From an uncultured Acidobacteriota bacterium (GTDB lineage: Bacteria; Acidobacteriota; Thermoanaerobaculia; UBA5066; Gp7-AA6), in assembly GCA_963739435.1 (NCBI GenBank), contig CAVUAN010000016.1, positions 129,309 through 193,308 of the forward strand: 64,000 nucleotides of DNA. The letters run 5' to 3'. The position numbers and the translations under genes are program-made. Below the pieces are notes generated by a model. That model saw only the letters and a list, made by a program, of their open reading frames with translations. It was not told the DNA's origin and ran no database searches. Below are positions 33,371-55,950 of this stretch, piece by piece. The stretch's first letter is position 1. Each line of letters opens with the position of its first letter.

Positions 33371-33446
33371 CTCCGCCGCGCTACATTAGCGTCGGCCTGC
33401 CTGATGAGCCCAATGTTATCGTCGGACGTCTTTGAAGGAGGCTCCC

Positions 33447-34361
33447 ATGAGCATGAAGGGAATCATCCAGAGGTCCCGCGCCTTCTCCAAGCCCTTCCGC
33501 GTCACCGACGGAAAGGGCTTTCGCCTGAAGGACGTCAATCCCGCCGACACCCTCGACCTCGGCTCCGAGGACAAGCCGCGGGCCAAGGAGGCCCTGGCCA
33601 GCGGCGTCCAGGCCCTCTCCGAGCTCCAGAACATGCTCTACGCGCAGGACACCTGGGCCGTCCTGCTCATCTTCCAAGCCATGGACGCCGCCGGCAAAGA
33701 CGGGACGATCAAGCACGTCATGTCCGGCGTCAACCCGCAGGGCTGCGAGGTGTCCTCCTTCAAGTCTCCGTCGTCTGAAGATCTCGACCACGACTACCTC
33801 TGGCGCTGCCTGAAGCGCATGCCGGAGCGCGGGCGCATCGGCATCTTCAACCGCAGCTACTACGAGGAGACGCTGGCCGTGCGCGTGCACCCCGAATTCC
33901 TCGAAAAGCAGAAGCTCCCGCCAGGCCTCACGAAGGGGAGCATCTGGAAGAAGCGCTTTCAGGACATCCGCTCCGTCGAGAGATATCTGACGCGCAACGG
34001 CGTCGTCATCCGCAAGTTCTTCCTCCACGTGTCCAAGAAAGAGCAGAAGCGGCGCTTCCTGGAGCGCCTGGAGAACCCCGAGAAGAACTGGAAGTTCTCC
34101 GGCAACGACGCCAAGGAGCGCCAGTGGTGGAACGAATACCAGGATGCCTACGAGGACACGATCCGCAACACGGCCACGAAGGGGGCGCCGTGGTACGTCG
34201 TTCCTGCCGACAACAAGTGGTTCACCCGAGTCGTCGTGGCGGCCGCCGTCGTGGACGCCCTGGGCTCGCTGGGTCTCAAGTATCCCAAAGTCGACAAGGA
34301 AAGATTGAAGGAGCTCGCCGCGGCGAGGAAGGCACTGCTGGGCGACAAGCCGGAAGCGTGA
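33447..34361 (+). CDS. ppk2: Polyphosphate kinase 2 (PPK2) family protein, single-domain
   Basis: ATG 33447 follows GAAGGAGG. Motifs: LLIFQAMDAAGKDGTIKHV (Walker A-like), FNRSYYEE and WYVVPADNKW. Confidence 0.8.
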   Translation: MSMKGIIQRSRAFSKPFRVTDGKGFRLKDVNPADTLDLGSEDKPRAKEALASGVQALSELQNMLYAQDTWAVLLIFQAMDAAGKDGTIKHVMSGVNPQGCEVSSFKSPSSEDLDHDYLWRCLKRMPERGRIGIFNRSYYEETLAVRVHPEFLEKQKLPPGLTKGSIWKKRFQDIRSVERYLTRNGVVIRKFFLHVSKKEQKRRFLERLENPEKNWKFSGNDAKERQWWNEYQDAYEDTIRNTATKGAPWYVVPADNKWFTRVVVAAAVVDALGSLGLKYPKVDKERLKELAAARKALLGDKPEA

Positions 34362-34371
34362 GGGCGCCGAA

Positions 34372-36017
34372 ATGAGCGTGGGCTGGCTCGCCGGTTATCG
34401 GAAGGCCTGGCTGAGACCCGACGTCATCGCCGGCCTGACCGCCGCAGCGGTCGTCATCCCCAAGGCCATGGCCTATGCCACCATCGCCGGGCTGCCCGTC
34501 GAGATCGGCCTCTACACGGCGTTTCTGCCCATGCTCGTCTACGCCGTGCTCGGCACGTCGCGCGTTCTGAGCGTCAGCACCACGACCACGATCGCGATCC
34601 TGACCGGAGCCAACCTCGCCGGGGCCGTCCCGGCCGGCGATTCCGCCGCGCTGCTACGCGCCTCGGCCACCCTGACGCTGATCGTCGGAGCGATCCTGGT
34701 AGCGGCCTGGGTTCTGCGGCTCGGGTTCGTCGCCAACTTCATCTCCGAGCCGGTCCTGGTTGGATTCAAAGCCGGGATCGGGGTCGTCATCGTCCTCGAC
34801 CAGATCCCGAAGCTGCTCGGCTTCCACATCCCGAGGGGTTCCTTTCTCAAGAATCTGGCCGCGACCGTCGGGCATCTCCCCCAGACGCGGCCGCGACCCT
34901 CGCCGTGGCGGTCGCCATGATCGCGATCCTCGTCGGCCTCGAGCATTTCTTCCCGCGGTTGCCGGCGCCGCTCGTGGCCGTCGCGGCCGGCATCGCCGGC
35001 GCCCGCCTGCTCGGGCTGAAGGCACTGGGCGTCGAGCTGGTGGGCCACATTCCAACGGGCTTCCCCTCGCTCACTCTCCCGGATTTTTCGCTCACGGACG
35101 CTCTCTGGTCCGGAGCCGTGGGCATCGCCCTGATGAGCTTCACCGAGACAGTTGCCGCCGGCCGCGCCTTCGCCCGAGACGACGACCAGCCCCCCCGGGC
35201 CAACCGGGAGCTTTTCGCGACCGGGCTCGGAAACGCAGCAAGTGCCTTCCTGGGAGCCATGCCCTCGGGCGGCGGCACGTCCCAGACGGCGGTCAACCGC
35301 CATGCGGGCGCTCACACGCAGCTCGCCGAGGTCGTGACGGCAGCCGCCACGCTCGCGACGATGTTTCTGCTGGCTCCCCTGATCGGCTCGATGCCTCAGG
35401 CGACGCTGGCCGCCGTGGTCGTCGTCTACTCGATCGGCCTGATCAAGCCGGCGGAGTTTCGCGCGATCCTCCGGGTCCGGCGCACGGAGTTCCTCTGGGC
35501 GCTCGCTGCCCTTGCAGGCGTCATGCTCTTCGGAACGCTCAAGGGGATCCTCGTCGCGATCGTCCTGTCGCTCGTCGCGCTGGCCTACCAGGTGGCGGAC
35601 CCGCCCGTGCACGTCCTGGGGCGCAAGCCGGGCACGAACGTCTTCCGGCCGCGCTCGAAGGAGCATCCGGAAGACGAGTCCTTCCCGGGCTGCCTGCTCC
35701 TGCGGCTCGAGGGCCGGGTCTTCTTCGCCAACGCCGAGCGCATCGGAGAGAAGATTCGCGCGCTCATCGCCGAGGCGAAGCCAGGAGTTGTGGTCCTCGA
35801 CCTCGGCGCCGTCTTCGACTTCGAGTACACGGCCCTCAAGATGCTGACCGAGGGCGAGAAAAGGAGTCGGGAGCAAGGCATCGAGCTGTGGCTCGCGCGC
35901 CTGAACCCGGAGGTCCTGGAAATGGTCCAGCGGTCTCCGCTCGGCCAGACCCTGGGCCGCGACCGGATGTTCTTCAACCTCGAGATGGCCGTCGAGCGGT
36001 ATCGAGCCCGAGGTTGA
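34372..36017 (+). pseudogene. SulP-family anion permease with C-terminal STAS domain, one frameshift
   Basis: ORF 34372-34920 is real up to ...LAATVGHLPQT. ORF 34905-36017 continues the protein (...ATLAVAVAMIAILVGLEHFFPRLPAPLV...). The STAS end reads LLLRLEGRVFFANAE...VVVLDLGAVFDFEYTALKML. The shift lies at the CCCCC run ~34876-34890. Confidence 0.8.
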
Positions 36018-36091
36018 GGTCCCCGCGCAGAGTCTCGGCTTGCGAGGAGCGGTTTTGGCGATATAGTCACGACGTCGAATAAGGAGAAGCC

Positions 36092-37387
36092 ATGGAGCCC
36101 AATTCTTCTCGACCCCGACGCTCGATTCCGCCGTTCCGTGGGCTCGTAGCGCTCGTCTGTTCGGCGCTTCTCGCCTACGGCGACGCCGCCTTCTTCGCGC
36201 AGGCGGCTGCCCAGGAAGCGCCGGCCGAAGCGCCGGCCGAGAAGATTCCGCCGGACCAGCTCGATTCGCTGGTGGCCCCGATCGCCCTCTATCCCGATCC
36301 GCTCCTGGCGCAGACGCTCGCCGCGTCCACCTACCCGCTCGAGCTCATCCAGCTTCAGCAGTGGCTGGCGAAAAACCCGACCTTGAAGGACAAGGCGCTG
36401 GCCGACGCGGTGGCCAAGCAGCCCTGGGACCCGTCCATCCAGTCGATGGCGGCGGTTCCCGAGCTGGTCAAGCGGCTCGCCGATGACATCCAGTGGACGA
36501 CGCAGCTCGGCGACGCCTTCCTGGACCAGCAGAGCGACGTCATGGAGGCTGTCCAGCGGATGCGCAAGAAAGCCGACGAAAAAGGCGCGTTGAAGTCCAA
36601 CGAGCAGCAGACGGTCGAGACGAAGACCGTCGAGAGCAAGACCGTCATCGTCGTCCAGCCCACGAACCCCGAAGTCATCTACGTCCCTTCCTACAATCCG
36701 ACTGTCGTCTACCCTCCCCCGGTCTACCCGTACCCGCCGGTCTACTACCCGCCTTACTACGCGGGCGCCGCGCTGGTCTCCTTCGGCGTCGGCATGGCGA
36801 TGGGCGCGGCCATCTGGGGCGGATCCTGCTGCGGCTGCGGCTGGGGCGGGGGCGGGAACAACACGATCAATATCAACAACAACAACAACTTCAACAAGAA
36901 CACGAACGTCAACCGTGGCCAGGGCGGCGGCAACCGCGGCCAGGGCGGTAGCGGCAACTGGTCACACAACTCCCAGCATCGCGGCGGCGCCCCTTACTCG
37001 AACAAAGCGACGGCCAGCAAGTACGGCGGGTCGACCCAGGGAGGGCGTGGGTCAGGCGGCGGAGCGAGCGCCACGAACCGTGGCGGCGGAGCCGGAGCCG
37101 GCGCATCGAGCCGCGGCGGAGCCGGAGCGGGTCCCAGCGCGGGCGCATCCAGCCGCGGCGGCGGAGCCGGGTCGGGCGCATCGAGCCGCGGCGGCGGAGC
37201 GAGCCCCAGCGCGAGCTCATCGAGCCGCGGAGGCGGCGGCGGGGGCTCCTCGGCCATGGGGGGCGGCTCGGGCGGCTTCAGCGGCAGCAGCGCAAGATCG
37301 AGCAGCTCCCGAGGCTCCTCGAGCATGAGCGGGGGCGGGGGCTCGAGGGGCGGCGGCGGGGGCCGCGGCGGCGGAGGTCGGAGATGA
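36092..37387 (+). CDS. DUF3300-family secreted protein with Asn-run and Gly/Ser/Arg low-complexity tail (paralog 1)
   Basis: 431 aa with signal-like N-terminus. Motifs: LDSLVAPIALYPDPLLAQTLAASTYP, WDPSIQ, LGDAFLDQQSDVMEAVQRMR, YYPPYY, GSCCGCGWGGGG and TININNNNN. Tail ends ...SSARSSSSRGSSSMSGGGGSRGGGGGRGGGGRR. Confidence 0.75.
   Translation: MEPNSSRPRRSIPPFRGLVALVCSALLAYGDAAFFAQAAAQEAPAEAPAEKIPPDQLDSLVAPIALYPDPLLAQTLAASTYPLELIQLQQWLAKNPTLKDKALADAVAKQPWDPSIQSMAAVPELVKRLADDIQWTTQLGDAFLDQQSDVMEAVQRMRKKADEKGALKSNEQQTVETKTVESKTVIVVQPTNPEVIYVPSYNPTVVYPPPVYPYPPVYYPPYYAGAALVSFGVGMAMGAAIWGGSCCGCGWGGGGNNTININNNNNFNKNTNVNRGQGGGNRGQGGSGNWSHNSQHRGGAPYSNKATASKYGGSTQGGRGSGGGASATNRGGGAGAGASSRGGAGAGPSAGASSRGGGAGSGASSRGGGASPSASSSSRGGGGGGSSAMGGGSGGFSGSSARSSSSRGSSSMSGGGGSRGGGGGRGGGGRR
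37100..37243 (+). repeat. Imperfect 33-42 nt tandem repeats inside the DUF3300 tail (coding for GASSRGGGAG units)
   Basis: ggcgcatcgagccgcggcgg(c)ggagc... recurs four times head-to-tail. Confidence 0.6.
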
Positions 37388-38367
37388 GCACCATGAAGCA
37401 CCGGCTTGGTACGGGTATCGTTTGCGCCCTCCTCTTGGCGCCCGCGCTCGAAGCAACGGCGCAGGAAGCCAAGAAGTCTGCGACCCCGAAAGCAGCGCCG
37501 CAGCAGACCTTCGACACGCCGAAGGCGGCTGCCGACGCGCTGGTCGCAGCGGCCGCGAGCTACGACCTGCCCGCCTTGAAGAAGATCCTCGGGCCGGACG
37601 GCGAGGCCCTCGTCGTCACGAAGGACCCGGTTCAGGACAAGAATCAGCTCGCGGCATTCGCGGCCACGGCAAAAGAAAAGAGCGAAATCGTCCCCGAGCC
37701 GAAGAACCCGAACCGAGCGATCCTCACAATCGGAGACCAGGACTGGCCGATGCCGATCCCTATCGTCAAGAAGGACGGCAAGTGGGTTTTCGATTCGAAG
37801 GCCGGGCGGAAGGAAGTGCTCTACCGCCGCATCGGGGGCAACGAGCTCGATGCCATCGAGGCCTGCCACAACTACGTCGAGGCGCAGCAGGAGTACGCGG
37901 CCGAGAAGCACGACGGCTCGAAGCTCAACCAGTACGCCCAGAAGGTCATCAGCACTGAAGGCAAGCAGGACGGCCTCGTGTGGCGCAACGCCGATGGGAC
38001 CTTCGGAGGACCGCTGAGTGAAGGGCTCGGCGAGGCGATCGCCCAGGGCTATTCAAAAAAGGCTGATCCGTTCCACGGCTACTATTTCAAGATCTTGAAG
38101 GGCCAGGGCCCGGCGGCGCCGCTCGGAAAGATCGACTTCGTCGTGGAGGGGGTCATGATCGGCGGCTTCGCGCTCGTCGCGGCGCCGTCCGACTACCGGG
38201 TGACCGGCGTGATGACCTTCATCGTCAGTCACAACGGCATCGTCTACCAGAAGGACCTCGGGCCAACGACTCTCGAGGCGTTCAAGAAGATGGAGCTCTA
38301 CAACCCCGACAAGACGTGGCACCCGGTGGACGCGACGTCCACGCGCGAAGCGGCTGCCACCCAGTAG
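37384..38367 (+). CDS. DUF2950-family secreted protein (paralog 1)
   Basis: 327 aa with a signal peptide. Motifs: TFDTPKAAADAL, DWPMPIPIV, RRIGGNELDAI, YVEAQQEYAAE and GYYFKIL. The start overlaps the upstream stop (ATGA). Confidence 0.75.
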   Translation: MSTMKHRLGTGIVCALLLAPALEATAQEAKKSATPKAAPQQTFDTPKAAADALVAAAASYDLPALKKILGPDGEALVVTKDPVQDKNQLAAFAATAKEKSEIVPEPKNPNRAILTIGDQDWPMPIPIVKKDGKWVFDSKAGRKEVLYRRIGGNELDAIEACHNYVEAQQEYAAEKHDGSKLNQYAQKVISTEGKQDGLVWRNADGTFGGPLSEGLGEAIAQGYSKKADPFHGYYFKILKGQGPAAPLGKIDFVVEGVMIGGFALVAAPSDYRVTGVMTFIVSHNGIVYQKDLGPTTLEAFKKMELYNPDKTWHPVDATSTREAAATQ

Positions 38368-38394
38368 GGGGCAGGCGGTGCCCGGAGATCGCCC

Positions 38395-39480
38395 ATGAGC
38401 CGTGTTCTCGCAGAGCTCCGCGAGAACCGCATGTACTGGCTTCTGGTGTTCGTGCCGGCCGTCCTGATTGCGGAGCATCTGCGCCCCGAAGCCCACACGG
38501 CCCTCTTTCTGGTGTCGGTGGCCGCCATCGTTCCGCTCGCCGCGCTGCTGAGCCGCGCAACGGAAAGCGTGGCCGCGAAGACCGGGGACGCCGTCGGCGG
38601 CCTCTTGAACGCCACGCTCGGCAACCTGACCGAGCTCGTCATCGCGATCACGGCTCTGCGCGCCGGGATGCTCGACCTCGTGAAAGCGTCCATAACCGGA
38701 GCCATCGTGACCAACAGCCTGTTCATGCTGGGCGGCGCGTTCCTGCTCGGCGGCCTGAAGTACCACAAGCAGGAATTCAACCCGGCCAACGCGCGCACCC
38801 AGGCCGGGATGCTGCTGCTGGCAACAGTCGCCCTCGTCGTCCCGTCCGCGGTTGCTCACGTGGATAGGCTGAACGTCGCCTCCGTGATGCGCCCGCTCTC
38901 CGTCGGACTGTCCTGCATCCTCCTCGTGACCTACGGGCTCAGCCTGCTCTTCTCGCTCAAGACCCATCGCGACATCTTCAAGAGCGTCGGCGGTGAAGAG
39001 CACGGGGAAACACCCTGGCCCCTTCCCATGGCCCTCGGTGCGCTCGCGATCGCGACGCTTTTCATCGCCCTCGTCAGCGAGATCTTCGTGGAATCGGTGC
39101 AGCAGGCAGCCGTCACCCTCGGGATGTCGAAGGCGTTCGTCGGGTTCATCGTGGTGTCGCTGGTCGGCGCAGCAGCCGAGATGACCACCGCTTTCTCGGC
39201 GGCCCGCAAGAACCGTGTCGATCTCGCCGTCGGGGTCGCGATGGGCAGCTCCGCGCAGATCGCCCTCTTCGTGGCCCCGGTTCTCCTGATCCTGAGCTAC
39301 TTCGTGTCGCCGGCGCCCATGGACCTGAACTTCGGAGGGGGCCAGGTGCTGCTCGTTCTTCTCACGACCCTGACTGTCTCGTTCGTGGTCTCGAACGGGC
39401 GCTCCGCCTGGTACTCCGGCGTCGAGCTTCTCGCCGTGTATGCCATCTTCGCCGTCACGGCTTACCTGATTCCGAGCTAG
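38395..39480 (+). CDS. Ca2+/H+ antiporter (CaCA/CAX, ChaA-like)
   Basis: 361 aa, ~10-11 TM, with two alpha-repeat motifs: ATLGNLTELVIAITAL and SLVGAAAEMTTAFSAA. Confidence 0.8.
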   Translation: MSRVLAELRENRMYWLLVFVPAVLIAEHLRPEAHTALFLVSVAAIVPLAALLSRATESVAAKTGDAVGGLLNATLGNLTELVIAITALRAGMLDLVKASITGAIVTNSLFMLGGAFLLGGLKYHKQEFNPANARTQAGMLLLATVALVVPSAVAHVDRLNVASVMRPLSVGLSCILLVTYGLSLLFSLKTHRDIFKSVGGEEHGETPWPLPMALGALAIATLFIALVSEIFVESVQQAAVTLGMSKAFVGFIVVSLVGAAAEMTTAFSAARKNRVDLAVGVAMGSSAQIALFVAPVLLILSYFVSPAPMDLNFGGGQVLLVLLTTLTVSFVVSNGRSAWYSGVELLAVYAIFAVTAYLIPS

Positions 39481-39504
39481 GATCCACCCCGGAGGAAGCG
39501 ACCC

Positions 39505-40719
39505 ATGCTCCAGACGCTTCGTGCGGAATTGGCGGGAACGCGAGGTGCGGTCCTCGTCGCGACGCTCAGCGCCCTGCTGGCTGCCCCGGCCGGCACGATT
39601 CTGGCCGCGCAGGAGGCGCAAGCGGCTGCGGCGCCAGAGGAGTCGGTCAAGCTCTCGAATGACCAGCTCGACGCCCTGGTCGCCCCCATCGCCCTCTATC
39701 CCGACCCGCTGCTCGCGCAGTGCCTGGTCGCTTCGACGTACCCGATCGACATCGTCGAGGCGCAGCAGTGGTTGCCGAAGAACGCCAGCCTCAAAGGAGA
39801 CGCGCTGGTCGAAGCGGCGCAGAAGGAAGACTGGGACCCGAGCGTCCAGGCTCTGGTTTCGATTCCGGACGCGCTGAAGGTCCTCTCCGAGAACATCGCA
39901 TGGACCACGGATCTTGGCGATGCGTTCCTGGCTCAGCAGAGCGAGGTCATGGACGCGGTCCAGCGCCTGCGTGCCAAAGCCAAGGACTCGGGCAAGCTCA
40001 CGTCCACCGATCAGCAGAAGGTCGAAACGAAAACGGAGGAATCGAAGACCGTCATCGAGATCCAGCCCGCGAGCACCGAGGTCGTCTACGTTCCCTCGTA
40101 CAGCCCGTCCGTCATCTGGGGAGTGGGGTACTACCCCTACCCCCCGCTCTACTACCCGCCCTACTACGGGGGCGCGTGGCTCGGCTTCGGCGTCGGGATC
40201 GCCATCGGTATCGGGATTTCCGGAGGATGGGGCTGGGGCTGCGGATGGCACGGGGGCGGAAACACGATCAACATCAACAACAACAACAACTACATCAACC
40301 ACAACAACGTGAGGAACAACTCGAACCGGAGCGGCAACAGCAACTGGCAGCACAACGCGCAGCAGCGCGGCGGCGCCCCCTACAAGGACAAGGCCACGGC
40401 CAGCAAGTACGGCGGCGGGGCCCGCGGCGACTCTCCGCAGGCCCGTCAGTCCCAGGCGCAGGGCCGCCAGTCGGGAGGCTTCGATCGGGGCGGAGCGAGC
40501 GCGGGCAGCATGGACCGGGGCGGATCCAGCGGCGCATACCGTGGCGGCAGCTCGAGCAGCTATGCTGGCAGCCGCGACGTACCGTCCAGCAGCCGGGGCA
40601 GCGGCGCCTTCGGAGGGTCGATGAGCGGAAGCAGCGCCAGGTCCTCGAGCTCGCGCGGCTCCTCGAGCATGGGCGGCATGCGCGGCGGCGGCGGCGGGCG
40701 CGGCGGCGGGCGGCGGTAG
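39505..40719 (+). CDS. DUF3300-family secreted protein (paralog 2)
   Basis: 404 aa, sharing motifs with 36092-37387: LDALVAPIALYPDPLLAQCLVASTYP, WDPSVQ, YYPPYY, GWGWGCGWHGGG, TININNNNN and SSARSSSSRGSSSMGGMRGGGGGRGGGRR. Confidence 0.75.
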   Translation: MLQTLRAELAGTRGAVLVATLSALLAAPAGTILAAQEAQAAAAPEESVKLSNDQLDALVAPIALYPDPLLAQCLVASTYPIDIVEAQQWLPKNASLKGDALVEAAQKEDWDPSVQALVSIPDALKVLSENIAWTTDLGDAFLAQQSEVMDAVQRLRAKAKDSGKLTSTDQQKVETKTEESKTVIEIQPASTEVVYVPSYSPSVIWGVGYYPYPPLYYPPYYGGAWLGFGVGIAIGIGISGGWGWGCGWHGGGNTININNNNNYINHNNVRNNSNRSGNSNWQHNAQQRGGAPYKDKATASKYGGGARGDSPQARQSQAQGRQSGGFDRGGASAGSMDRGGSSGAYRGGSSSSYAGSRDVPSSSRGSGAFGGSMSGSSARSSSSRGSSSMGGMRGGGGGRGGGRR

Positions 40720-40734
40720 GCCCAAGGAGCAAAC

Positions 40735-41694
40735 ATGCGCAAGCTGAAACTTCACTCTCTCCTGTCGCTGACGAGCCTCGCGGCCCTTCTTGCTGCTGCC
40801 GGCTGGCTCCAGCCCCTCGTCCTCGGCGCGCAGAATGCGCCAGCCCCCGCCCAGCTCACGTTCGACACGCCGAAACACGCGGCCGAGGCCCTTCTTAAGG
40901 CGGCGGAGGCCGCCGACGTTCCGGCGCTCCTCAAGATCTTCGGGCCCGACGGCAAGGACATCGTCTCCTCGGGCGACCCCGTCAGGGACAAGAACGACTT
41001 CAAGCGGTTCGCCAGCAAGGCGCGCGAGAAAATGGAAATCACATTCGATCCCGCCGACCCCAAGCGGGCGATCCTCAATGCCGGCAACGACGACTGGCCG
41101 ATGCCCGTTCCGATCGTCGAGAAGCAGGGCAAGTGGCGCTTCGACGCGAAGGAAGGCAAGAGGGAGATCCTGGCCCGGCGCATCGGGGGTAACGAGCTCA
41201 ATACGATTTCACTGCTCCGCGGCTACGTCGAGGCCCAGAAGGAATACGCCGCGGAGCTGCACGACGGAAGCAAAATGCGCCAGTACGCGCAGACGGCGAT
41301 CAGCAGCCCCGGCAAGCAGAACGGCCTGTCGTGGCGGGACGCGGACGGGAAACCGGCCGGGCCGATGGGCGACGTGGTGGCAAAGGCCATCGCGGCGGGC
41401 TACACGAAGAGAGCGGAGCCCTACAACGGCTATCACTTCCGGACCCTCACGGCCCAGGGCTCGGCGGCGCGGCTGGGCGCCCGCAACTACATCTTCAACG
41501 GCATGATGATCGGCGGCTTCGCCGCGATCGCCTGGCCCGCGACCTACGGGGTCACCGGGGTCCAGACCTTCATGGTGAACAACGACGGCCTGGTGTACCA
41601 GAAGGACCTCGGCCCGGACACGGCGAAGATCGCGCCGGCGATCAAGAAGTTCGACCCGGACAAGACCTGGACCGTCACCAAAGACGAAGAGTAG
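40735..41694 (+). CDS. DUF2950-family secreted protein (paralog 2)
   Basis: 319 aa with a signal peptide. Motifs: TFDTPKHAAEAL, DWPMPVPIV, RRIGGNELNTI, YVEAQKEYAAE and GYHFRTL. Confidence 0.75.
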   Translation: MRKLKLHSLLSLTSLAALLAAAGWLQPLVLGAQNAPAPAQLTFDTPKHAAEALLKAAEAADVPALLKIFGPDGKDIVSSGDPVRDKNDFKRFASKAREKMEITFDPADPKRAILNAGNDDWPMPVPIVEKQGKWRFDAKEGKREILARRIGGNELNTISLLRGYVEAQKEYAAELHDGSKMRQYAQTAISSPGKQNGLSWRDADGKPAGPMGDVVAKAIAAGYTKRAEPYNGYHFRTLTAQGSAARLGARNYIFNGMMIGGFAAIAWPATYGVTGVQTFMVNNDGLVYQKDLGPDTAKIAPAIKKFDPDKTWTVTKDEE

Positions 41695-41717
41695 GCCGGG
41701 CGGGAAGGAGCCTTCAC

Positions 41718-42417
41718 ATGCGGAACACCGGGCTGATCGTTCTGGTGGCGCTAGTCTTCGCCGGCGGTGCTCAGGGCCAGCAGCCTTCAGCTCAGCACCC
41801 CGTCGGAAAGCAGACCCAGGCCGAGGAGCCGCTCGACATCTACCAGATCGACCTCAATCCGACGGGGACCGGATTCGCCCTCACCAAGCCCGTTCTGGAA
41901 GGGAACGTCTACGTGTTCAAAGTCTGGCCGGACCGGGCGACCATCCGCCTTCCCGTGTCGAGGGTCAAGAAGATGGTCCGGCGAATGAAGGAAATTGAAG
42001 ACGAGGTGATCTACAGGATCGACCTCGTTCCAACCGGCCAGATGATCGCCCGCGACCACCCGACAAAGCAGGGAACGACATATGTGTTCCACGCCTGGCG
42101 CGGGGGCACGTTCATGAGCGTGCGCCAGACGGACGTGCAGAAGATCACACGCGTTGCGGGGCTCGAGGCCTTCAAGGTCCACCTGCAACAGATTGGCGCC
42201 AAGCCCACCGGCAACCTGCCGATGGAGGGAGGCGACCCGGCGACTACGATTCCGGTCGCCCCGTCCTCCGGCGCCCAGGGCTCGAGCTCGGGTCAGGGTC
42301 TGACTGCCAGGCAATTGGATCTACCAGGGGGTTCCAGGAGTGACGGATGCCTGGGCGCCGCCGTCTGCCGTCATCGACTCGCCCGGCGGCGTGCCGAGGG
42401 CTCAGCCTCACTCCTGA
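41718..42417 (+). pseudogene. Secreted protein with two ~60-aa repeats (unknown function), one frameshift near the 3' end
   Basis: ATG 41718 follows GGAAGGAG: MRNTGLIVLVALVFAGGAQG... Repeats are YQIDLNPTGTGFALTKPVLEGNVYVFKVWPDRATIRLPVSRVKKM and YRIDLVPTGQMIARDHPTKQGTTYVFHAWRGGTFMSVRQTDVQKI. After ...SSGQGL (~42302) the sensible reading (LPGNWIYQGVPGVTDAWAPPSAVIDSPGGVPRAQPHS, stop at 42415-42417) is in another frame. Confidence 0.55.
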
Positions 42418-42430
42418 GAGGGCCGCCCGA

Positions 42431-43672
42431 CTACGGGTTCTGCCTCCCAGGTCGAAAGAGAAGCTGTACTTCGCCGAAAAGACGACGCGGAAGTCGTTCA
42501 CACCGAAACCGTCGGAGAAGTTCTGCCTGCGGCCCCACTGGAGCTCGAGGCCCGTCATCACGTTCTTCACGGGATAGAAGAGCAGGTTGGCCAGAGCGTA
42601 CTGCCCGCTCTTGAAGGCCGAAGGCAGCTGCCCGTCGCTGTTGGTGATGTCGAGGCGCGAATAGCCGACCGCGCTCGAGAACTTCTCGCTCCACTTGAAG
42701 TCGTAGAACGCGACCATGCCGAAGACCGGCAGAGCTTCGCCGACGACCGGCCGGCCCGGATCGCCGAAGTTCTCCCGGGCCCCGACGTCTGCCGGCGCGT
42801 CTCTCATGTAGGTCTCGATAGCCTTCCCGTACGAGGCCTCGAGCTTCAACTTGCCCGTCTTCGTGAGGTTGAGGACCGAGCTCAGGTTCAGGCCCCAGCC
42901 GATCGTGTGCCCCGACAGGTCGTACTGGTCCTTGAGCGTGTCCGTCCAGCCGACGTAGCGAACGATTCCGGCGAGCTGGACGTGCCCCCACGACTCCCCG
43001 TAGCGGAACTGAGCCGTGAAGTCCGGGTAGGGGAAATGGCCCTGGATGTTCTGCAGCTCGATCCGGCCCTTGAACTCGCCGCTGTCGCCGCTGCGCTCCC
43101 GGCCGCTCCAGCGCGAAGACGAGACGCGTGTCGCCCTGGATCGGTGTCCAGCGGATCTGGATGTTGCGGTAGATAGACCATCCCGTTCGGCCCCCAGAAC
43201 TCCAGGGAATCCGGGAAGACGTCCCCGTCCATGAAGACGCTGTTGGTCTGGCCGGCCAGGAACTGTCCGAGCTCGCCCCACGCCCGGCGCAGGTGAAACG
43301 TCGTCTCGCCCGCGTCGGCGCCGACCCCCAGGAGGTCGAACTCGAATTCCGTCTTGAGCTCACCGAGACTCGTCGGCAGCCAGGAGCGAACGCCGAAGCG
43401 GCTCGGCCGCACGCTCGCCCAGAGGTTACCGTTCTGCTCCGAACTCGTTCGGAAAGGACGGGAGCTTCGACGGACGCTCGACGTCGTACCAGTCCGGATT
43501 CGTCTGGTTGATGTCGTAGATCGTGTTGACGCTGGCGAAGCCGTAGATCTGCATGCGGAGCCCGGACTTCGGCTCGGGGTTTGCCGGGGGCTCGGCCGCT
43601 GTTTGCGCCAGGAAACACGCCGCCCGGAGCGTCCACAGCAGAACCGCGGCGATCGGAAGCGCCGCGGCTCGC

Positions 43673-43686
<14 letters not shown>
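42431..43686 (-). pseudogene. Porin-like outer-membrane beta-barrel (paralog of 53222-54488), three to four frameshifts
   Basis: Pieces in three frames, colinear with the paralog:
- [20 protein letters not shown]...[14 protein letters not shown]...PSFPNEFG
- (~43438) [54 protein letters not shown]...WGPNGMV
- (~43174) [25 protein letters not shown]
- (~43095) [24 protein letters not shown]...FSAKYSFSFDLGG. Confidence 0.75.
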
Positions 43687-46367
<2,681 letters not shown>

Positions 46368-46380
46368 GCGACCTCCCGGA

Positions 46381-47043
46381 CTATTTGACGAACCCGGTCA
46401 GCACTGCGATCGGGAAGGAGATGTTGCCGGCCACGATCAGGACCGCGAAGATCCAGGCCGCGGCGTGGGCGATGCGCATGTAGCGCGGATGCGAGACGCC
46501 GAGCGTCTGGCACATGCTCCAGACGCCATGCTGCAGATGGAAACCCAGAGCCACCATCGCGAAGATGTAGAAGAGCGAAACCGGCACGCTCTGGAAGCCC
46601 ACGACGAAGTTGCGGTAGATGTCGCCCTCGACGAAGTGCGGGTGAACCGTGCCGGTCGTGAAGTGGAGGATGTGATAGATCACGAAGAGCAGCAGGATGA
46701 CGCCTCCCCACCGCATCGTGCGTGAGGCGTAGGTGGACTCCTTCCATGCCTGCTCGCGATAGCCGAGGGGTCTTGCGCGGCGGCTCTCGAGCGTCAGGGA
46801 CGTCGCCGACCAGATGTGCAGCGACACGGCCGTCAGCATCACGGCGCGGACGACCCAGAGCCCGGCTCCGTGGAGGAGCGACCGCAGCAGCACGCCGTAG
46901 TGGTTGAGCGCCTCGGGCCCGAGATAGACCTGCAGGTTGCCGAGCATGTGGCCGAGGACGAAGCCGAAGAGGATCAGGCCCGTGACCGCCATGATCACCT
47001 TGCGCCCGATCGAAGAGCCGATAAACCCTGGCGCCTGACTCAT
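46381..47043 (-). CDS. sdhC: Succinate dehydrogenase / fumarate reductase cytochrome b subunit (b558 family, five TM)
   Basis: 220 aa: ...[31 protein letters not shown]... with conserved His residues in the helices. Located immediately upstream of sdhA. Confidence 0.8.
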
Positions 47044-54621: not shown

Positions 54622-55272
54622 TCAGAAGTCGAGGCTGATCGAAAAAACAGTCGTCGGGTCCGTCCACCCGGCATTGAAGATGTACAGGGTGAACTTCCAG
54701 TTCTTGACCGTCCCGCCGACCAGGAATCCCCGCTGAATGTCGAGAGGAGTCTGGTAGGCCCTCGTCCGCTGGGACACCAGCCCCGCCCGGAGCCAGTCGA
54801 AGGGGGCGTAGGTCAATTCGTTCCAGCTGTAGAAATAGTTGTCGGCGCTGTTTCCCGTGTCGAAGAGGTACTCGCCCTCGCTGTATAGCTCGAGCTTCTT
54901 GTAGTCGAGCGTGAGGTGGTAGCCCGGAGCCACCCCGTTGGTCTTGCCGAAGACGCCGCCGACCATCGGCGTCAGCTCGAGAGTCAGGGTCTTGCCGAAC
55001 TGGAACGTCGCCCCGAACCAGAGGGACGCCGTGTGGGGAGCCTCGTAGTTGTAGCGGCCTTCCAGATGCAGCCAGCCGCGGTCCGCCGTGAGCGTCGGCT
55101 GGACGTAGTCGCTCTCGTGCGGCACGAAGTACGCGTACGCCGACCCGGAGAACTCCCACTTCGCAGCTTCCGGCTCGGCGGGCGCCGGGCTCCCGGTCCC
55201 CTGTTGCGCGGCTGCCGAAGCCGCCAGCAGAAGGATCAGCGCGCCGGAAATGCTGCGCCCGAGCCCTCTCAT
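54622..55272 (-). CDS. Small outer-membrane beta-barrel protein, unknown function
   Basis: 216 aa from the internal ATG at 55272: MRGLGRSISGALILLLAASAAAQQ, followed by alternating aromatic beta-strand pattern, ending ...TVFSISLDF. The ATG overlaps the upstream stop (ATGA). Confidence 0.6.
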   Translation of the reverse strand: MRGLGRSISGALILLLAASAAAQQGTGSPAPAEPEAAKWEFSGSAYAYFVPHESDYVQPTLTADRGWLHLEGRYNYEAPHTASLWFGATFQFGKTLTLELTPMVGGVFGKTNGVAPGYHLTLDYKKLELYSEGEYLFDTGNSADNYFYSWNELTYAPFDWLRAGLVSQRTRAYQTPLDIQRGFLVGGTVKNWKFTLYIFNAGWTDPTTVFSISLDF

Positions 55273-55931
55273 CCTCCGAGCGCGATCGTCAGGGAGACCA
55301 GCACCACTCCGATTAAAGCCATCGCCAGACCGAGCACGACGGGGCGCAGTCCGCTGTGGCGCCCCAGCAGGTAGCCGCTCGCAAAAAGCATCCCCACGGC
55401 GATGAAGTTCGACATCCGAGTCGCCCGCGCCGCGTCGGCCAGAAAGAGAAACGGCAGGACCACCGGAAACGTCGAGAGGAACACGATGAGGAACACGGCG
55501 ACGGCCCCGCGGAGGTCCCGTCGGGTCAGCGGCGGCCGGGCCGGCAGCTTCAGGGTCGCCAGCCGCTCGCGCATCAGGTCGAGGTCGGCGGGGCGGAGGA
55601 CCGAGGCCAGGATGGGAGGAAGGGCGTCCGCGATAAGGCCGCGGGCGTGCTCGTCCTCCCCCGGCTGTTGAACGGCCTTCAAGATGACGAGGCCGCGCCC
55701 CCGCGCGAGCAGGCCTCCGAGCAGGTACATCACGGCGTCCACGATCCCCCAGGCGGCGTTGCACCCGATCGCGCCGATCAACATCGTGCGGACTTCCTGA
55801 CGGCCGGCGGTGGCGACCGAGAGTGAGCCCGTGAACGTCAGGACCATGATCAGGCCGAAGACGATCTCGGAAAAGCGCTCCAGGGGGTCGAGGACGTGGC
55901 CGCTTCCCTGCTGCTCGACTGGCATGACCAT
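55269..55931 (-). CDS. VIT1/CCC1-family (vacuolar-iron-transporter-like) membrane protein
   Basis: 220 aa with five hydrophobic helices. N-terminal LDPLERFSEIVFGLIMVLTFTGSL and a central soluble loop. Family call rests on overall pattern only. Confidence 0.5.
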   Translation of the reverse strand: MVMPVEQQGSGHVLDPLERFSEIVFGLIMVLTFTGSLSVATAGRQEVRTMLIGAIGCNAAWGIVDAVMYLLGGLLARGRGLVILKAVQQPGEDEHARGLIADALPPILASVLRPADLDLMRERLATLKLPARPPLTRRDLRGAVAVFLIVFLSTFPVVLPFLFLADAARATRMSNFIAVGMLFASGYLLGRHSGLRPVVLGLAMALIGVVLVSLTIALGG

Positions 55932-55950
55932 CGGATTCTAGACCACCGAG

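Follow-up and report, generated by a model that had tools for sequence, protein, structure and literature searches.

Genes for DUF3300 and DUF2950 proteins were described in root-nodule bacteria by Seshadri et al. (2015), who reported the two as 'universally co-localized' with DUF3300 upstream (PMC4653623). Both families bear signal peptides and are induced in nodule transcriptomes, and their neighbouring genes gave no functional hint (PMC4653623); the literature we searched assigns no function to either. Here we analyze a 64,000-nucleotide (nt) stretch from an uncultured Acidobacteriota bacterium (contig CAVUAN010000016.1; hereafter the window) in which two such pairs, A1-B1 and A2-B2 (A for DUF3300, B for DUF2950), lie on either side of a gene for a CAX-type cation/proton antiporter and are followed by a gene, D, for a two-repeat protein (Table 1). 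The window pairs match the root-nodule pair in families, gene order, predicted signal peptides and the absence of a known function. They differ from it in being two diverged pairs within one probable operon of an Acidobacteriota-type genome, and, whereas neighbours were uninformative in the root-nodule report, here one subtype (type 2, A2-B2) is tied to CAX and VIT1-like genes and the other (type 1, A1-B1) to NarL-type two-component systems, PPK2 and SulP. The pairing itself was thus already published in 2015; what we add is the split into subtypes, the subtype-specific linkage to CAX and VIT1, the neighbours of type 1 and the architecture of DUF3300.

A second described relative is YacH (b0117) of Escherichia coli, which is Cpx-regulated and whose deletion raised survival on protamine (PMC9600279); it is also Rob-responsive, and in the literature searched we found regulon and screen mentions only and no mechanism. 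YacH resembles A1 and A2 in having a predicted signal peptide, a helical domain with APVALYPD... and LGDAFLAQPQDVMDSVQRLR, a stretch of Pro and Tyr, a hydrophobic segment of small residues, NINIDVNNFNR and W-x-HN...PY motifs and a basic tail. It differs in its length (617 amino acids, aa) and in its tail, which is built of Gln/Arg-rich repeats rather than the Gly/Ser/Arg of the window proteins. In the gene as surveyed here (L082:2408-4261, minus strand), a 22-residue Asp/His-rich stretch, DDDDHDHHHHDNDDYHHHDGGH, replaces the Trp/Cys motif described below and resembles a metal-binding insertion.

Profile searches placed all four window proteins in the two families far above the Pfam gathering cut-offs (25 bits for DUF3300, 20.2 bits for DUF2950; scores in Table 1): A1 and A2 match DUF3300 with E 5e-70 and 6e-75 over model positions 2/3-220/227, and B1 and B2 cover the whole DUF2950 model with E 3e-107 and 8e-105. 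An earlier note, made from this DNA's letters, had proposed these assignments, which the Pfam scores uphold. The list of open reading frames (ORFs) likewise bears out the five ORFs it had placed from A1 to B2 and the ATGA overlap of A1 with B1, and the motifs it quoted as shared by the large and by the small members are all visible in our alignments. Its remark that the families have no assigned function and are often adjacent agrees with the root-nodule report and with our survey of 81 genome loci and 80 metagenome loci, where DUF3300 lies directly upstream of a same-strand DUF2950 gene in both window pairs and in nearly all complete related loci. Relatives of B1 number more than 8,000 among 90%-identity clusters; at 50% identity B1/DUF2950 relatives form 5,848 clusters, with 878 at E <= 1e-30. 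The genome scan gave 80 loci, mostly from metagenome-assembled genomes (MAGs) labelled Acidobacteriota or Verrucomicrobiae, with a minority labelled delta proteobacterium, Polyangiaceae, Gammaproteobacteria or Gemmatimonadaceae, and 178 plasmid records with DUF2950 came mainly from Sinorhizobium, Rhizobium, Paraburkholderia, Caballeronia and Cupriavidus. DUF3300 and DUF2950 range over Acidobacteriota, Verrucomicrobiota, Myxococcota-type MAGs, Gemmatimonadota, Alpha-, Beta- and Gammaproteobacteria and rhizobial symbiosis plasmids.

The two window pairs have diverged from each other. BLASTP puts A1 and A2 at 39% identity (a global MAFFT alignment at 56%), and B1 and B2 are 56% identical. A neighbour-joining tree of 89 DUF2950 sequences places B2, together with the second copies of two further loci (L003 and L006), in the deepest clade, outside the B1-like sequences of five phylum-level groups. 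Since B2 falls outside all of these, the tree supports an old origin of the second pair, by duplication or by acquisition, and rules out that it arose here by a recent tandem duplication, in keeping with the old duplication proposed in the earlier note. Pair 1 is the common subtype and pair 2 a deep-branching one. Orthologues of A2 occur in L003, L006 and L087-L097, and in the survey loci each type-2 DUF2950 gene is preceded by a type-2 DUF3300 gene, so the pair has diverged as a unit. Having two copies side by side is a common habit of the DUF3300-DUF2950 family: two or three complete pairs lie inside 10 kb in 7 of 81 genome loci, several MAGs carry pairs at separate loci, and tandem arrays recur on metagenome contigs as well.

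The antiporter follows this subtype division. We gathered type-2 loci by scanning metagenome contigs with the type-2 alignment and then classified their flanks. A CAX gene adjoins 7 of the 12 type-2 loci with usable flanks (the window, L003, L088, L095, L096, L097 and, as a relic, L091), compared with 4 of 150 type-1 pairs (Fisher p 5e-7), or 4 of 81 when genome loci alone are counted (p 2e-5). The relic has an internal deletion and is recognisable at residues 4-37 and 336-360 only. Gene order runs CAX-A2-B2 in the window, A2-B2-CAX-VIT in L003, A2-B2-VIT-CAX in L088, CAX-A2-B2-VIT in L095 and L097, and VIT(-)...CAX-A2-B2 in L096, with A2-B2-VIT in L006; because type-2 loci show at least four arrangements, the linkage to CAX has outlived rearrangement. 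The VIT1-like gene that usually adjoins type-2 pairs, a putative Fe/Mn exporter gene, is a borderline match to the VIT1/CCC1 model PF01988 (cut-off 28.1 bits), with 31.9 bits in L095, 27.6 in L096 and 27.0 in the window; the match covers the C-terminal half only, and matches to TIGR00267 are weak. Type 2 travels as a recurrent CAX-DUF3300-DUF2950(-VIT1) cassette. The earlier note had described a CaCA antiporter bracketed by two pairs: the antiporter stands, but the bracketing is not neutral, CAX belonging with the downstream type-2 pair. The pairing is kept across the neighbourhood survey, while the antiporter linkage is kept for type 2 and rare for type 1. Genes of the Na_H_Exchanger family and Bestrophin-like genes also flank type-2 pairs. 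At one locus (L096:7911-9553) a sortase gene and a gene for a small LPXTG-anchor protein directly follow CAX-A2-B2, in a genome that looks Gram-negative-type.

The signature of CAX proteins, whose characterised members include Bacillus subtilis YfkE and yeast Vcx1, is a GNxxE motif in both alpha-repeats. Like that family, the window protein has two Na_Ca_ex repeats, matches the TIGR00378 'cax' model over its full length above the equivalog cut-off (304.2 versus 211.15 bits) and fits the signature in alpha-1 (GNLTEL). Unlike it, alpha-2 reads GAAAEM instead of the usual GNAAEH; Asn is replaced by Ala and the acidic residue is kept, so that alpha-2 does not fit the signature. The hidden Markov model (HMM) classes the gene as CAX and predicts Ca2+/H+ exchange, its substrate being uncertain, and the GAAAEM variant may signify a different ion specificity. 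This variant is common to pair-linked CAX in two phyla: it occurs near pairs in the window, L036, L062, L073, L075, L088, L096 and L097, with GAAAEI in L095, and the canonical form (GNAAEL/GNAAEH) was found near pairs in L040 alone. Cassette CAX genes share 75-83% identity with one another, and in 5 of the 20 Verrucomicrobia loci a gene of the same subtype, 61-63% identical to them, stands 1-9 kb away from a type-1 pair. In the window and six cassette loci, Rfam gave zero matches to riboswitches or other RNAs at the gathering score.

The arrangement could also be without functional meaning, the pairs and the antiporter having become neighbours through insertion history and slow decay of synteny in one lineage. 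In Thermoanaerobaculia-type relatives the local backbone reads PPK2-(AI-2E)-SulP-D ... DcaP-sdhBAC, with the slot after D empty or holding one A-B pair, and in the window A1-B1-CAX-A2-B2 sits between SulP and D. The block fills a variable slot of this backbone, and the type-2 loci are close kin, as the similarity of their CAX genes indicates. Such an account must contend with linkage through at least four gene orders, with the CAX relic beside the L091 pair, with the presence of the same CAX subtype near type-1 pairs in another phylum and with the 15-27 nt gaps of the window, which imply co-transcription, and we regard it as very unlikely.

For the common subtype, we clustered all ORFs of the 81 genome loci without prior selection, annotated the clusters with Pfam and ranked the neighbours. 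HisKA_3 histidine kinases and REC/LuxR-type regulators lead the ranking (37 of 81 loci each), followed by AI-2E transporters (15), PPK2 (13), SulP, DcaP-like porins and CAX (10 each), Lnb_N and Phenol_MetA_deg (9 each), and VIT1-like genes and Asp-Al_Ex (8 each). In at least 12 loci the kinase and regulator genes immediately precede the pair, and the 13 PPK2 genes lie within 10 kb of a pair in three phyla, directly adjoining it in several loci; ackA, pta, phosphoketolase and MscS genes also recur. In several phyla, type-1 pairs have genes for NarL-type two-component systems, PPK2 and SulP in their vicinity. Annotated genomes of cultured Proteobacteria repeat this picture. On Sinorhizobium meliloti pSymA a kinase and two regulators diverge from the pair, which is followed by HlyD and MscS genes; ackA-pta is upstream of the pair in Eleftheria, a universal stress protein (USP) gene and an ornithine decarboxylase/PotE pair are nearby in Paraburkholderia, and in Caballeronia the pair is followed by a glycine-zipper protein gene and then ppk2-SulP-pta-ackA. 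On one Caballeronia plasmid (L167:8887-10918), genes for the glycine-zipper protein, two hypothetical proteins and an RT0821/Lpp0805 family surface protein come directly after the pair; homologues of this glycine-zipper protein occur in L028 and L096.

The gene content around the pair overlaps what has been reported for the low-oxygen locus lxa of Burkholderia and for the DosR regulon of mycobacteria (PMC3721108), which invites a different reading of the whole association: the pair may be a general envelope part of a dormancy-type stress regulon that answers to low oxygen or to energy limitation under NarL/LuxR-type systems, CAX and VIT1 being nearby through co-regulation of many stress genes and not through a direct part in cation handling. 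The most frequent neighbours are a HisKA_3 kinase, a LuxR-type regulator and a single REC protein (including on pSymA), ackA, pta, phosphoketolase, PPK2, SulP, USP and ornithine decarboxylase match lxa and DosR content (PMC3721108), and both families are induced in nodules that are microoxic (PMC4653623). Set against this, no NarL/LuxR-type two-component system was found in the 64-kb window, and the retention of CAX and VIT1 specifically by type 2, through rearrangements, is left unexplained. Membership of the lxa regulon itself was considered and dropped: BCAM1480 is a DUF1488 protein, BCAM1481/1482 are listed as unannotated hypotheticals, and none can be shown to be DUF3300 or DUF2950. We found no direct evidence placing the pair in the lxa or the DosR regulon. 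We consider a purely co-regulatory link somewhat unlikely.

We tentatively favour, at rather less than an even chance, reading DUF3300-DUF2950 from its gene context as an accessory module of the cell envelope that serves cation/proton homeostasis under ion or energy stress; the link to divalent cations that the earlier note had suggested is supported by that same context. Both proteins would be exported by Sec. DUF2950 would be a soluble periplasmic alpha+beta protein presenting E144, R148, R149, E154, Q168 and Y171 on one long helix, and would dock on the acidic helical head of DUF3300, carried on a Pro/Tyr-rich stalk. A glycine-zipper segment would hold DUF3300 at the membrane, with a long, acid-poor Arg/Gly/Ser/Asn tail attached. 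Together the two proteins may assist cation/proton exchange across the inner membrane, either by buffering or sensing exported divalent cations or by adjusting the envelope to them, and would belong to an ion- and energy-stress set with PPK2, SulP, Na+/H+ exchangers, MscS and NarL-type two-component systems. Export, a physical A-B complex and the cation/proton accessory role are all steps that we infer. CpxP, Spy, ZraP and CnrX, periplasmic accessory proteins of systems that respond to envelope stress or metals, offer a functional analogy: they are exported, small and of helical or alpha+beta fold, their genes adjoin those of two-component systems or metal exporters, and they tune sensing or act as periplasmic buffers. 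They differ from DUF3300-DUF2950 in having neither sequence or fold similarity to it nor a partner with a long low-complexity tail; CnrX did appear in Foldseek, at E about 5 and from a low-confidence DUF3300 model.

Several observations weigh against a cation/proton accessory role. The type-2 loci probably form one lineage and hence are non-independent, most type-1 pairs have no CAX gene nearby, and E. coli yacH, which sits between lpd and acnB, has no adjacent DUF2950 gene. Two-component genes are abundant in the surveyed phyla, so that 37 of 81 overstates their specificity, and the PPK2, SulP and DcaP signal is partly plain synteny in Thermoanaerobaculia-like genomes. We found no obvious Ca2+- or metal-binding motif kept family-wide, Cys161 and His231 of type-1 DUF2950 are not kept in distant members, and PDB searches for relatives of DUF3300 and DUF2950 returned nothing below E 0.3 by sequence and profile and no Foldseek match with E <= 1e-3.

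The AlphaFold2 (AF2) model of DUF2950 (B1) is alpha+beta and of moderate quality (mean predicted local distance difference test, pLDDT, 72.9), with a long central helix at residues 138-173. The residues invariant across the family (D137, E144, R148, R149, E154, Q168, Y171, W200, Y233, Q241 and F279) group on and around this helix. Against the PDB, Foldseek matched the N-terminal lobe best to 3gwr_B, a weak match (E 0.05, probability 0.94, target template-modelling score 0.39); matches to NTF2, ketosteroid isomerase and SnoaL are weaker still, none reaching E <= 1e-3. Cys161 and His231 are each kept in 99% of 156 type-1 DUF2950 proteins and are Leu and Asn, respectively, in type 2. We rejected the two as a family-wide metal-binding or catalytic dyad, because among 119 representatives of 38-60% identity they are kept in 61% and 69% and vary independently.

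DUF3300 has a constant layout across phyla, Proteobacteria included. A signal-peptide-like N-terminus, in which a hydrophobic stretch followed by Ala-x-Ala-like sites is kept in the family alignment, leads into an acidic helical domain (pI 4.3-4.5, without His and with at most one Cys); the exported part of A1 (aa 42-225) lacks both Cys and His and has a pI of 4.5. Next come a linker of Lys, Glu and Thr, a stretch rich in Pro and Tyr (YPYPPVYYPPYY), a glycine-zipper hydrophobic segment of 19-21 residues and W-G-x-x-C-[GD]-W, the last two being kept in about 80 loci of several phyla; the Trp/Cys motif reads CCGCGW in A1 and GCGW in A2. It is followed by an Asn run alternating with Ile/Val, by GNWQHN..HRGGAPY...KYGG and by a tail, 150-260 residues long and composed of Gly, Ser, Ala, Asn and Arg, that ends in GGGGGRRR nearly everywhere. 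The A1 tail consists of 36% G, 21% S, 10% A, 9% N and 9% R, carries 18 K+R and zero D/E and has a pI of 12.0; AF2 models it as disordered. An RGG/Asn-rich tail had been called unusual in the earlier note; it proves to be a conserved, family-wide feature of DUF3300. The AF2 model of A1 as a whole is poor (pLDDT 45.5), and its Foldseek matches, generic helical bundles, were disregarded. His296 of DUF3300 is Gln in type 2.

The glycine-zipper segment of DUF3300 may span the inner membrane; if it does, the tail may be cytoplasmic and not secreted. One could then picture DUF3300 as a single-pass inner-membrane protein whose polycationic tail binds a polyanion in the cytoplasm (polyphosphate, RNA or acidic lipid), coupling a signal from periplasmic DUF2950 to cytoplasmic polyphosphate-bound cation stores beside PPK2 and the cation exporters. 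The segment has a suitable length, a Kyte-Doolittle hydropathy of 1.2-2.0 and aromatic flanks (Tyr-rich on one side, Trp-rich on the other), AF2 places a helix at A1 227-238, the tail, with 15-39 K+R and 0-12 D+E and the GGGGGRRR end in nearly all phyla, fits the positive-inside rule, and PPK2 lies near the pair, as noted above. However, Gly and Ala abound in the segment, and summing its residues by hand on a biological hydrophobicity scale gives unfavourable values, about +2.5 kcal/mol for A1 and about +3.7 kcal/mol for A2. Its hydrophobicity is weak in some Verrucomicrobia (0.6-0.8) and in YacH of E. coli, acidic Asp/His-rich stretches follow it in E. coli and S. meliloti, and no polyphosphate-binding domain is known to resemble the tail. 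Such a polyanion tether seems to us quite unlikely. A more specific version, in which DUF3300 would be a membrane scaffold whose acid-free Arg/Gly/Ser tail binds polyphosphate and, with DUF2950, couples polyphosphate-bound divalent cations to the GAAAEM-type CAX, the VIT1-like exporter and PPK2, is highly improbable; if true, it would be a bacterial counterpart of acidocalcisome polyphosphate and cation handling, operating under low-oxygen or energy stress.

DUF3300 might instead be wholly exported, its Asn/Gly/Ser-rich region forming a matrix- or amyloid-like polymer in the periplasm or at the surface, with DUF2950 as chaperone or nucleator. The Asn run alternating with Ile/Val (NININNNNNFN) and the glycine-zipper segment do resemble amyloid-prone sequences, the tail is of low complexity, glycine-zipper and RT0821/Lpp0805 surface proteins lie downstream in Caballeronia, and YacH, whose segment is weaker, is predicted to be extracellular (PMC9600279). 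Yet curli- or Fap-type secretion or assembly genes are not among the recurrent neighbours, DUF3300 lacks the repeat structure of known functional amyloids, and the strict conservation of GNWQHNSQHRGGAPY and GGGGGRRR suggests recognition rather than bulk polymer, making this a decidedly remote prospect. A curli/Fap-type amyloid proper was rejected, the Asn run standing alone and secretion and nucleator genes being absent from the recurrent neighbours. Two further assignments were also set aside. A C-terminal sorting signal of the PEP-CTERM, LPXTG or GlyGly-CTERM type would suit the GGGGGRRR end, but the sole hydrophobic segment lies 160-260 residues upstream, and Pfam gave no match. A glycine-zipper outer-membrane lipoprotein (Gly-zipper, Rick_17kDa_Anti) was likewise rejected, there being no lipobox and, at E <= 10, no Pfam match of the segment other than DUF3300. 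A kinase-DUF3300 fusion (P0225, 491 aa, HATPase_c + DUF3300) turned out to be a GyrB N-terminus joined to DUF3300 on a 1.6-kb contig, probably a chimera.

In the window, the pairs belong to a same-strand run that begins with PPK2, 10 nt ahead of the next gene (Table 1). Gaps from A1 to D are, in order, -4, 27, 24, 15 and 23 nt; every start from A1 to D is preceded by a Shine-Dalgarno-like sequence, third-position G+C (GC3) is 0.85-0.90 from A1 to B2 and 0.83-0.90 with D included, and a site scan found no plus-strand terminator-like site inside the block. Given the short gaps, which leave too little room for terminators, A1-B1-CAX-A2-B2-D is probably one transcription unit, and this unit may extend upstream to PPK2 and SulP. 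The promoter-like match before A1 is weak and is the sole one across 33-43 kb, where 0.4 would be expected. A public collection holds a protein 100% identical to A1 (P0121), and the nearest named relatives of the window proteins are Thermoanaerobaculia and Acidobacteriota MAG proteins.

Table 1. Features of the DUF3300-DUF2950 locus and its surroundings. Positions are those of the window unless another locus is named.
Feature	Position	Strand	Basis or remark
PPK2	33432..34361	+	ORF; clusters with PPK2 of 13 related loci; PF03976 on syntenic counterparts
SulP/STAS anion transporter, frameshift-split	34372..36017	+	Overlapping ORFs 34372-34920 and 34905-36017
Candidate sigma-70-like promoter, TTGCGA-16-TATAGT	36040..36067	+	Weak match, in the 74-nt gap before A1
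A1, DUF3300 type 1, 431 aa	36092..37387	+	PF11737, 236 bits
A1 acidic helical domain, about aa 55-165	36254..36586	+	Alignment; AF2 helices 54-163
A1 glycine-zipper segment aa 224-242 and GGSCCGCGW aa 243-251	36761..36844	+	Kyte-Doolittle mean 1.6 over 19 aa
A1 low-complexity tail aa 258-431	36863..37384	+	TININNNNNFN, GNWSHNSQHRGGAPYSNKATASKYGG, Gly/Ser/Ala/Arg repeats, GGGRGGGGRR end
B1, DUF2950 type 1, 327 aa, signal-peptide-like N-terminus	37384..38367	+	PF11453, 358 bits
CAX-type cation/proton antiporter, CaCA superfamily, 361 aa	38395..39480	+	Two Na_Ca_ex; TIGR00378
A2, DUF3300 type 2, 404 aa	39505..40719	+	PF11737, 252 bits
A2 hydrophobic segment aa 223-241	40171-40227	+	Hydropathy, alignment
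A2 tail aa 254-404	40264-40716	+	Composition
B2, DUF2950 type 2, 319 aa	40735..41694	+	PF11453, 350 bits; deepest DUF2950 clade
D, exported two-repeat protein, one-base frameshift	41718..42417	+	Homologue comparison
VIT1-like gene	55272-55937	-	13.6 kb downstream of B2
Deleted CAX relic	L091:3478-3653		Immediately upstream of A2 of that locus

Gene D closes the run. Its two internal repeats, which the earlier note had seen, are 38% identical (E 1e-10). Its own frame has no stop at 42417, the end given earlier; that position is the stop of the next frame, because D carries a one-base frameshift near 42307-42311. Homologues end ...PGNWIYQGVPGVTDAWAPPSAV..., a sequence that the window encodes in that next frame, between about 42310 and the stop, and the conserved C-terminus (GNWIYQGVPGVTDAWAPPSAV...) lies within 42290-42417 in the shifted frame. 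The family is small and lineage-restricted (167 homologues), with no Pfam match for D. Since D follows SulP in relatives, it goes with SulP and not with the pairs. At one pair-less site (L083/L084, 10001-11682) two tandem D-family genes follow SulP; on the same contig a type-2 pair lies about 20 kb off, beside a Na+/H+ exchanger gene (L092).

Other genes around the pairs are similarly broken. SulP is spread over two frames (intact counterparts in syntenic relatives are 569-572 aa long, with Sulfate_transp and STAS domains), a DcaP-like porin gene (42244-43686, minus strand) over three, and sdhA (about 44000-46400, minus strand) appears to mix frames. These frameshifts are likely assembly indels, a likelier explanation than pseudogenes because the nearest relatives are long-read MAGs.

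Our findings open a moderately interesting way into a large family that is still uncharacterised, and are no surprise in themselves. The linkage of type 2 to CAX and a VIT1-like exporter provides a first testable link to ion handling for a widespread uncharacterised module, and the family-wide association of the pair with PPK2, SulP and NarL-type regulators offers experimental handles on a large set of 'conserved hypothetical' genes. Even if the link should prove to be co-regulation only, it would still give better annotation for thousands of genes.

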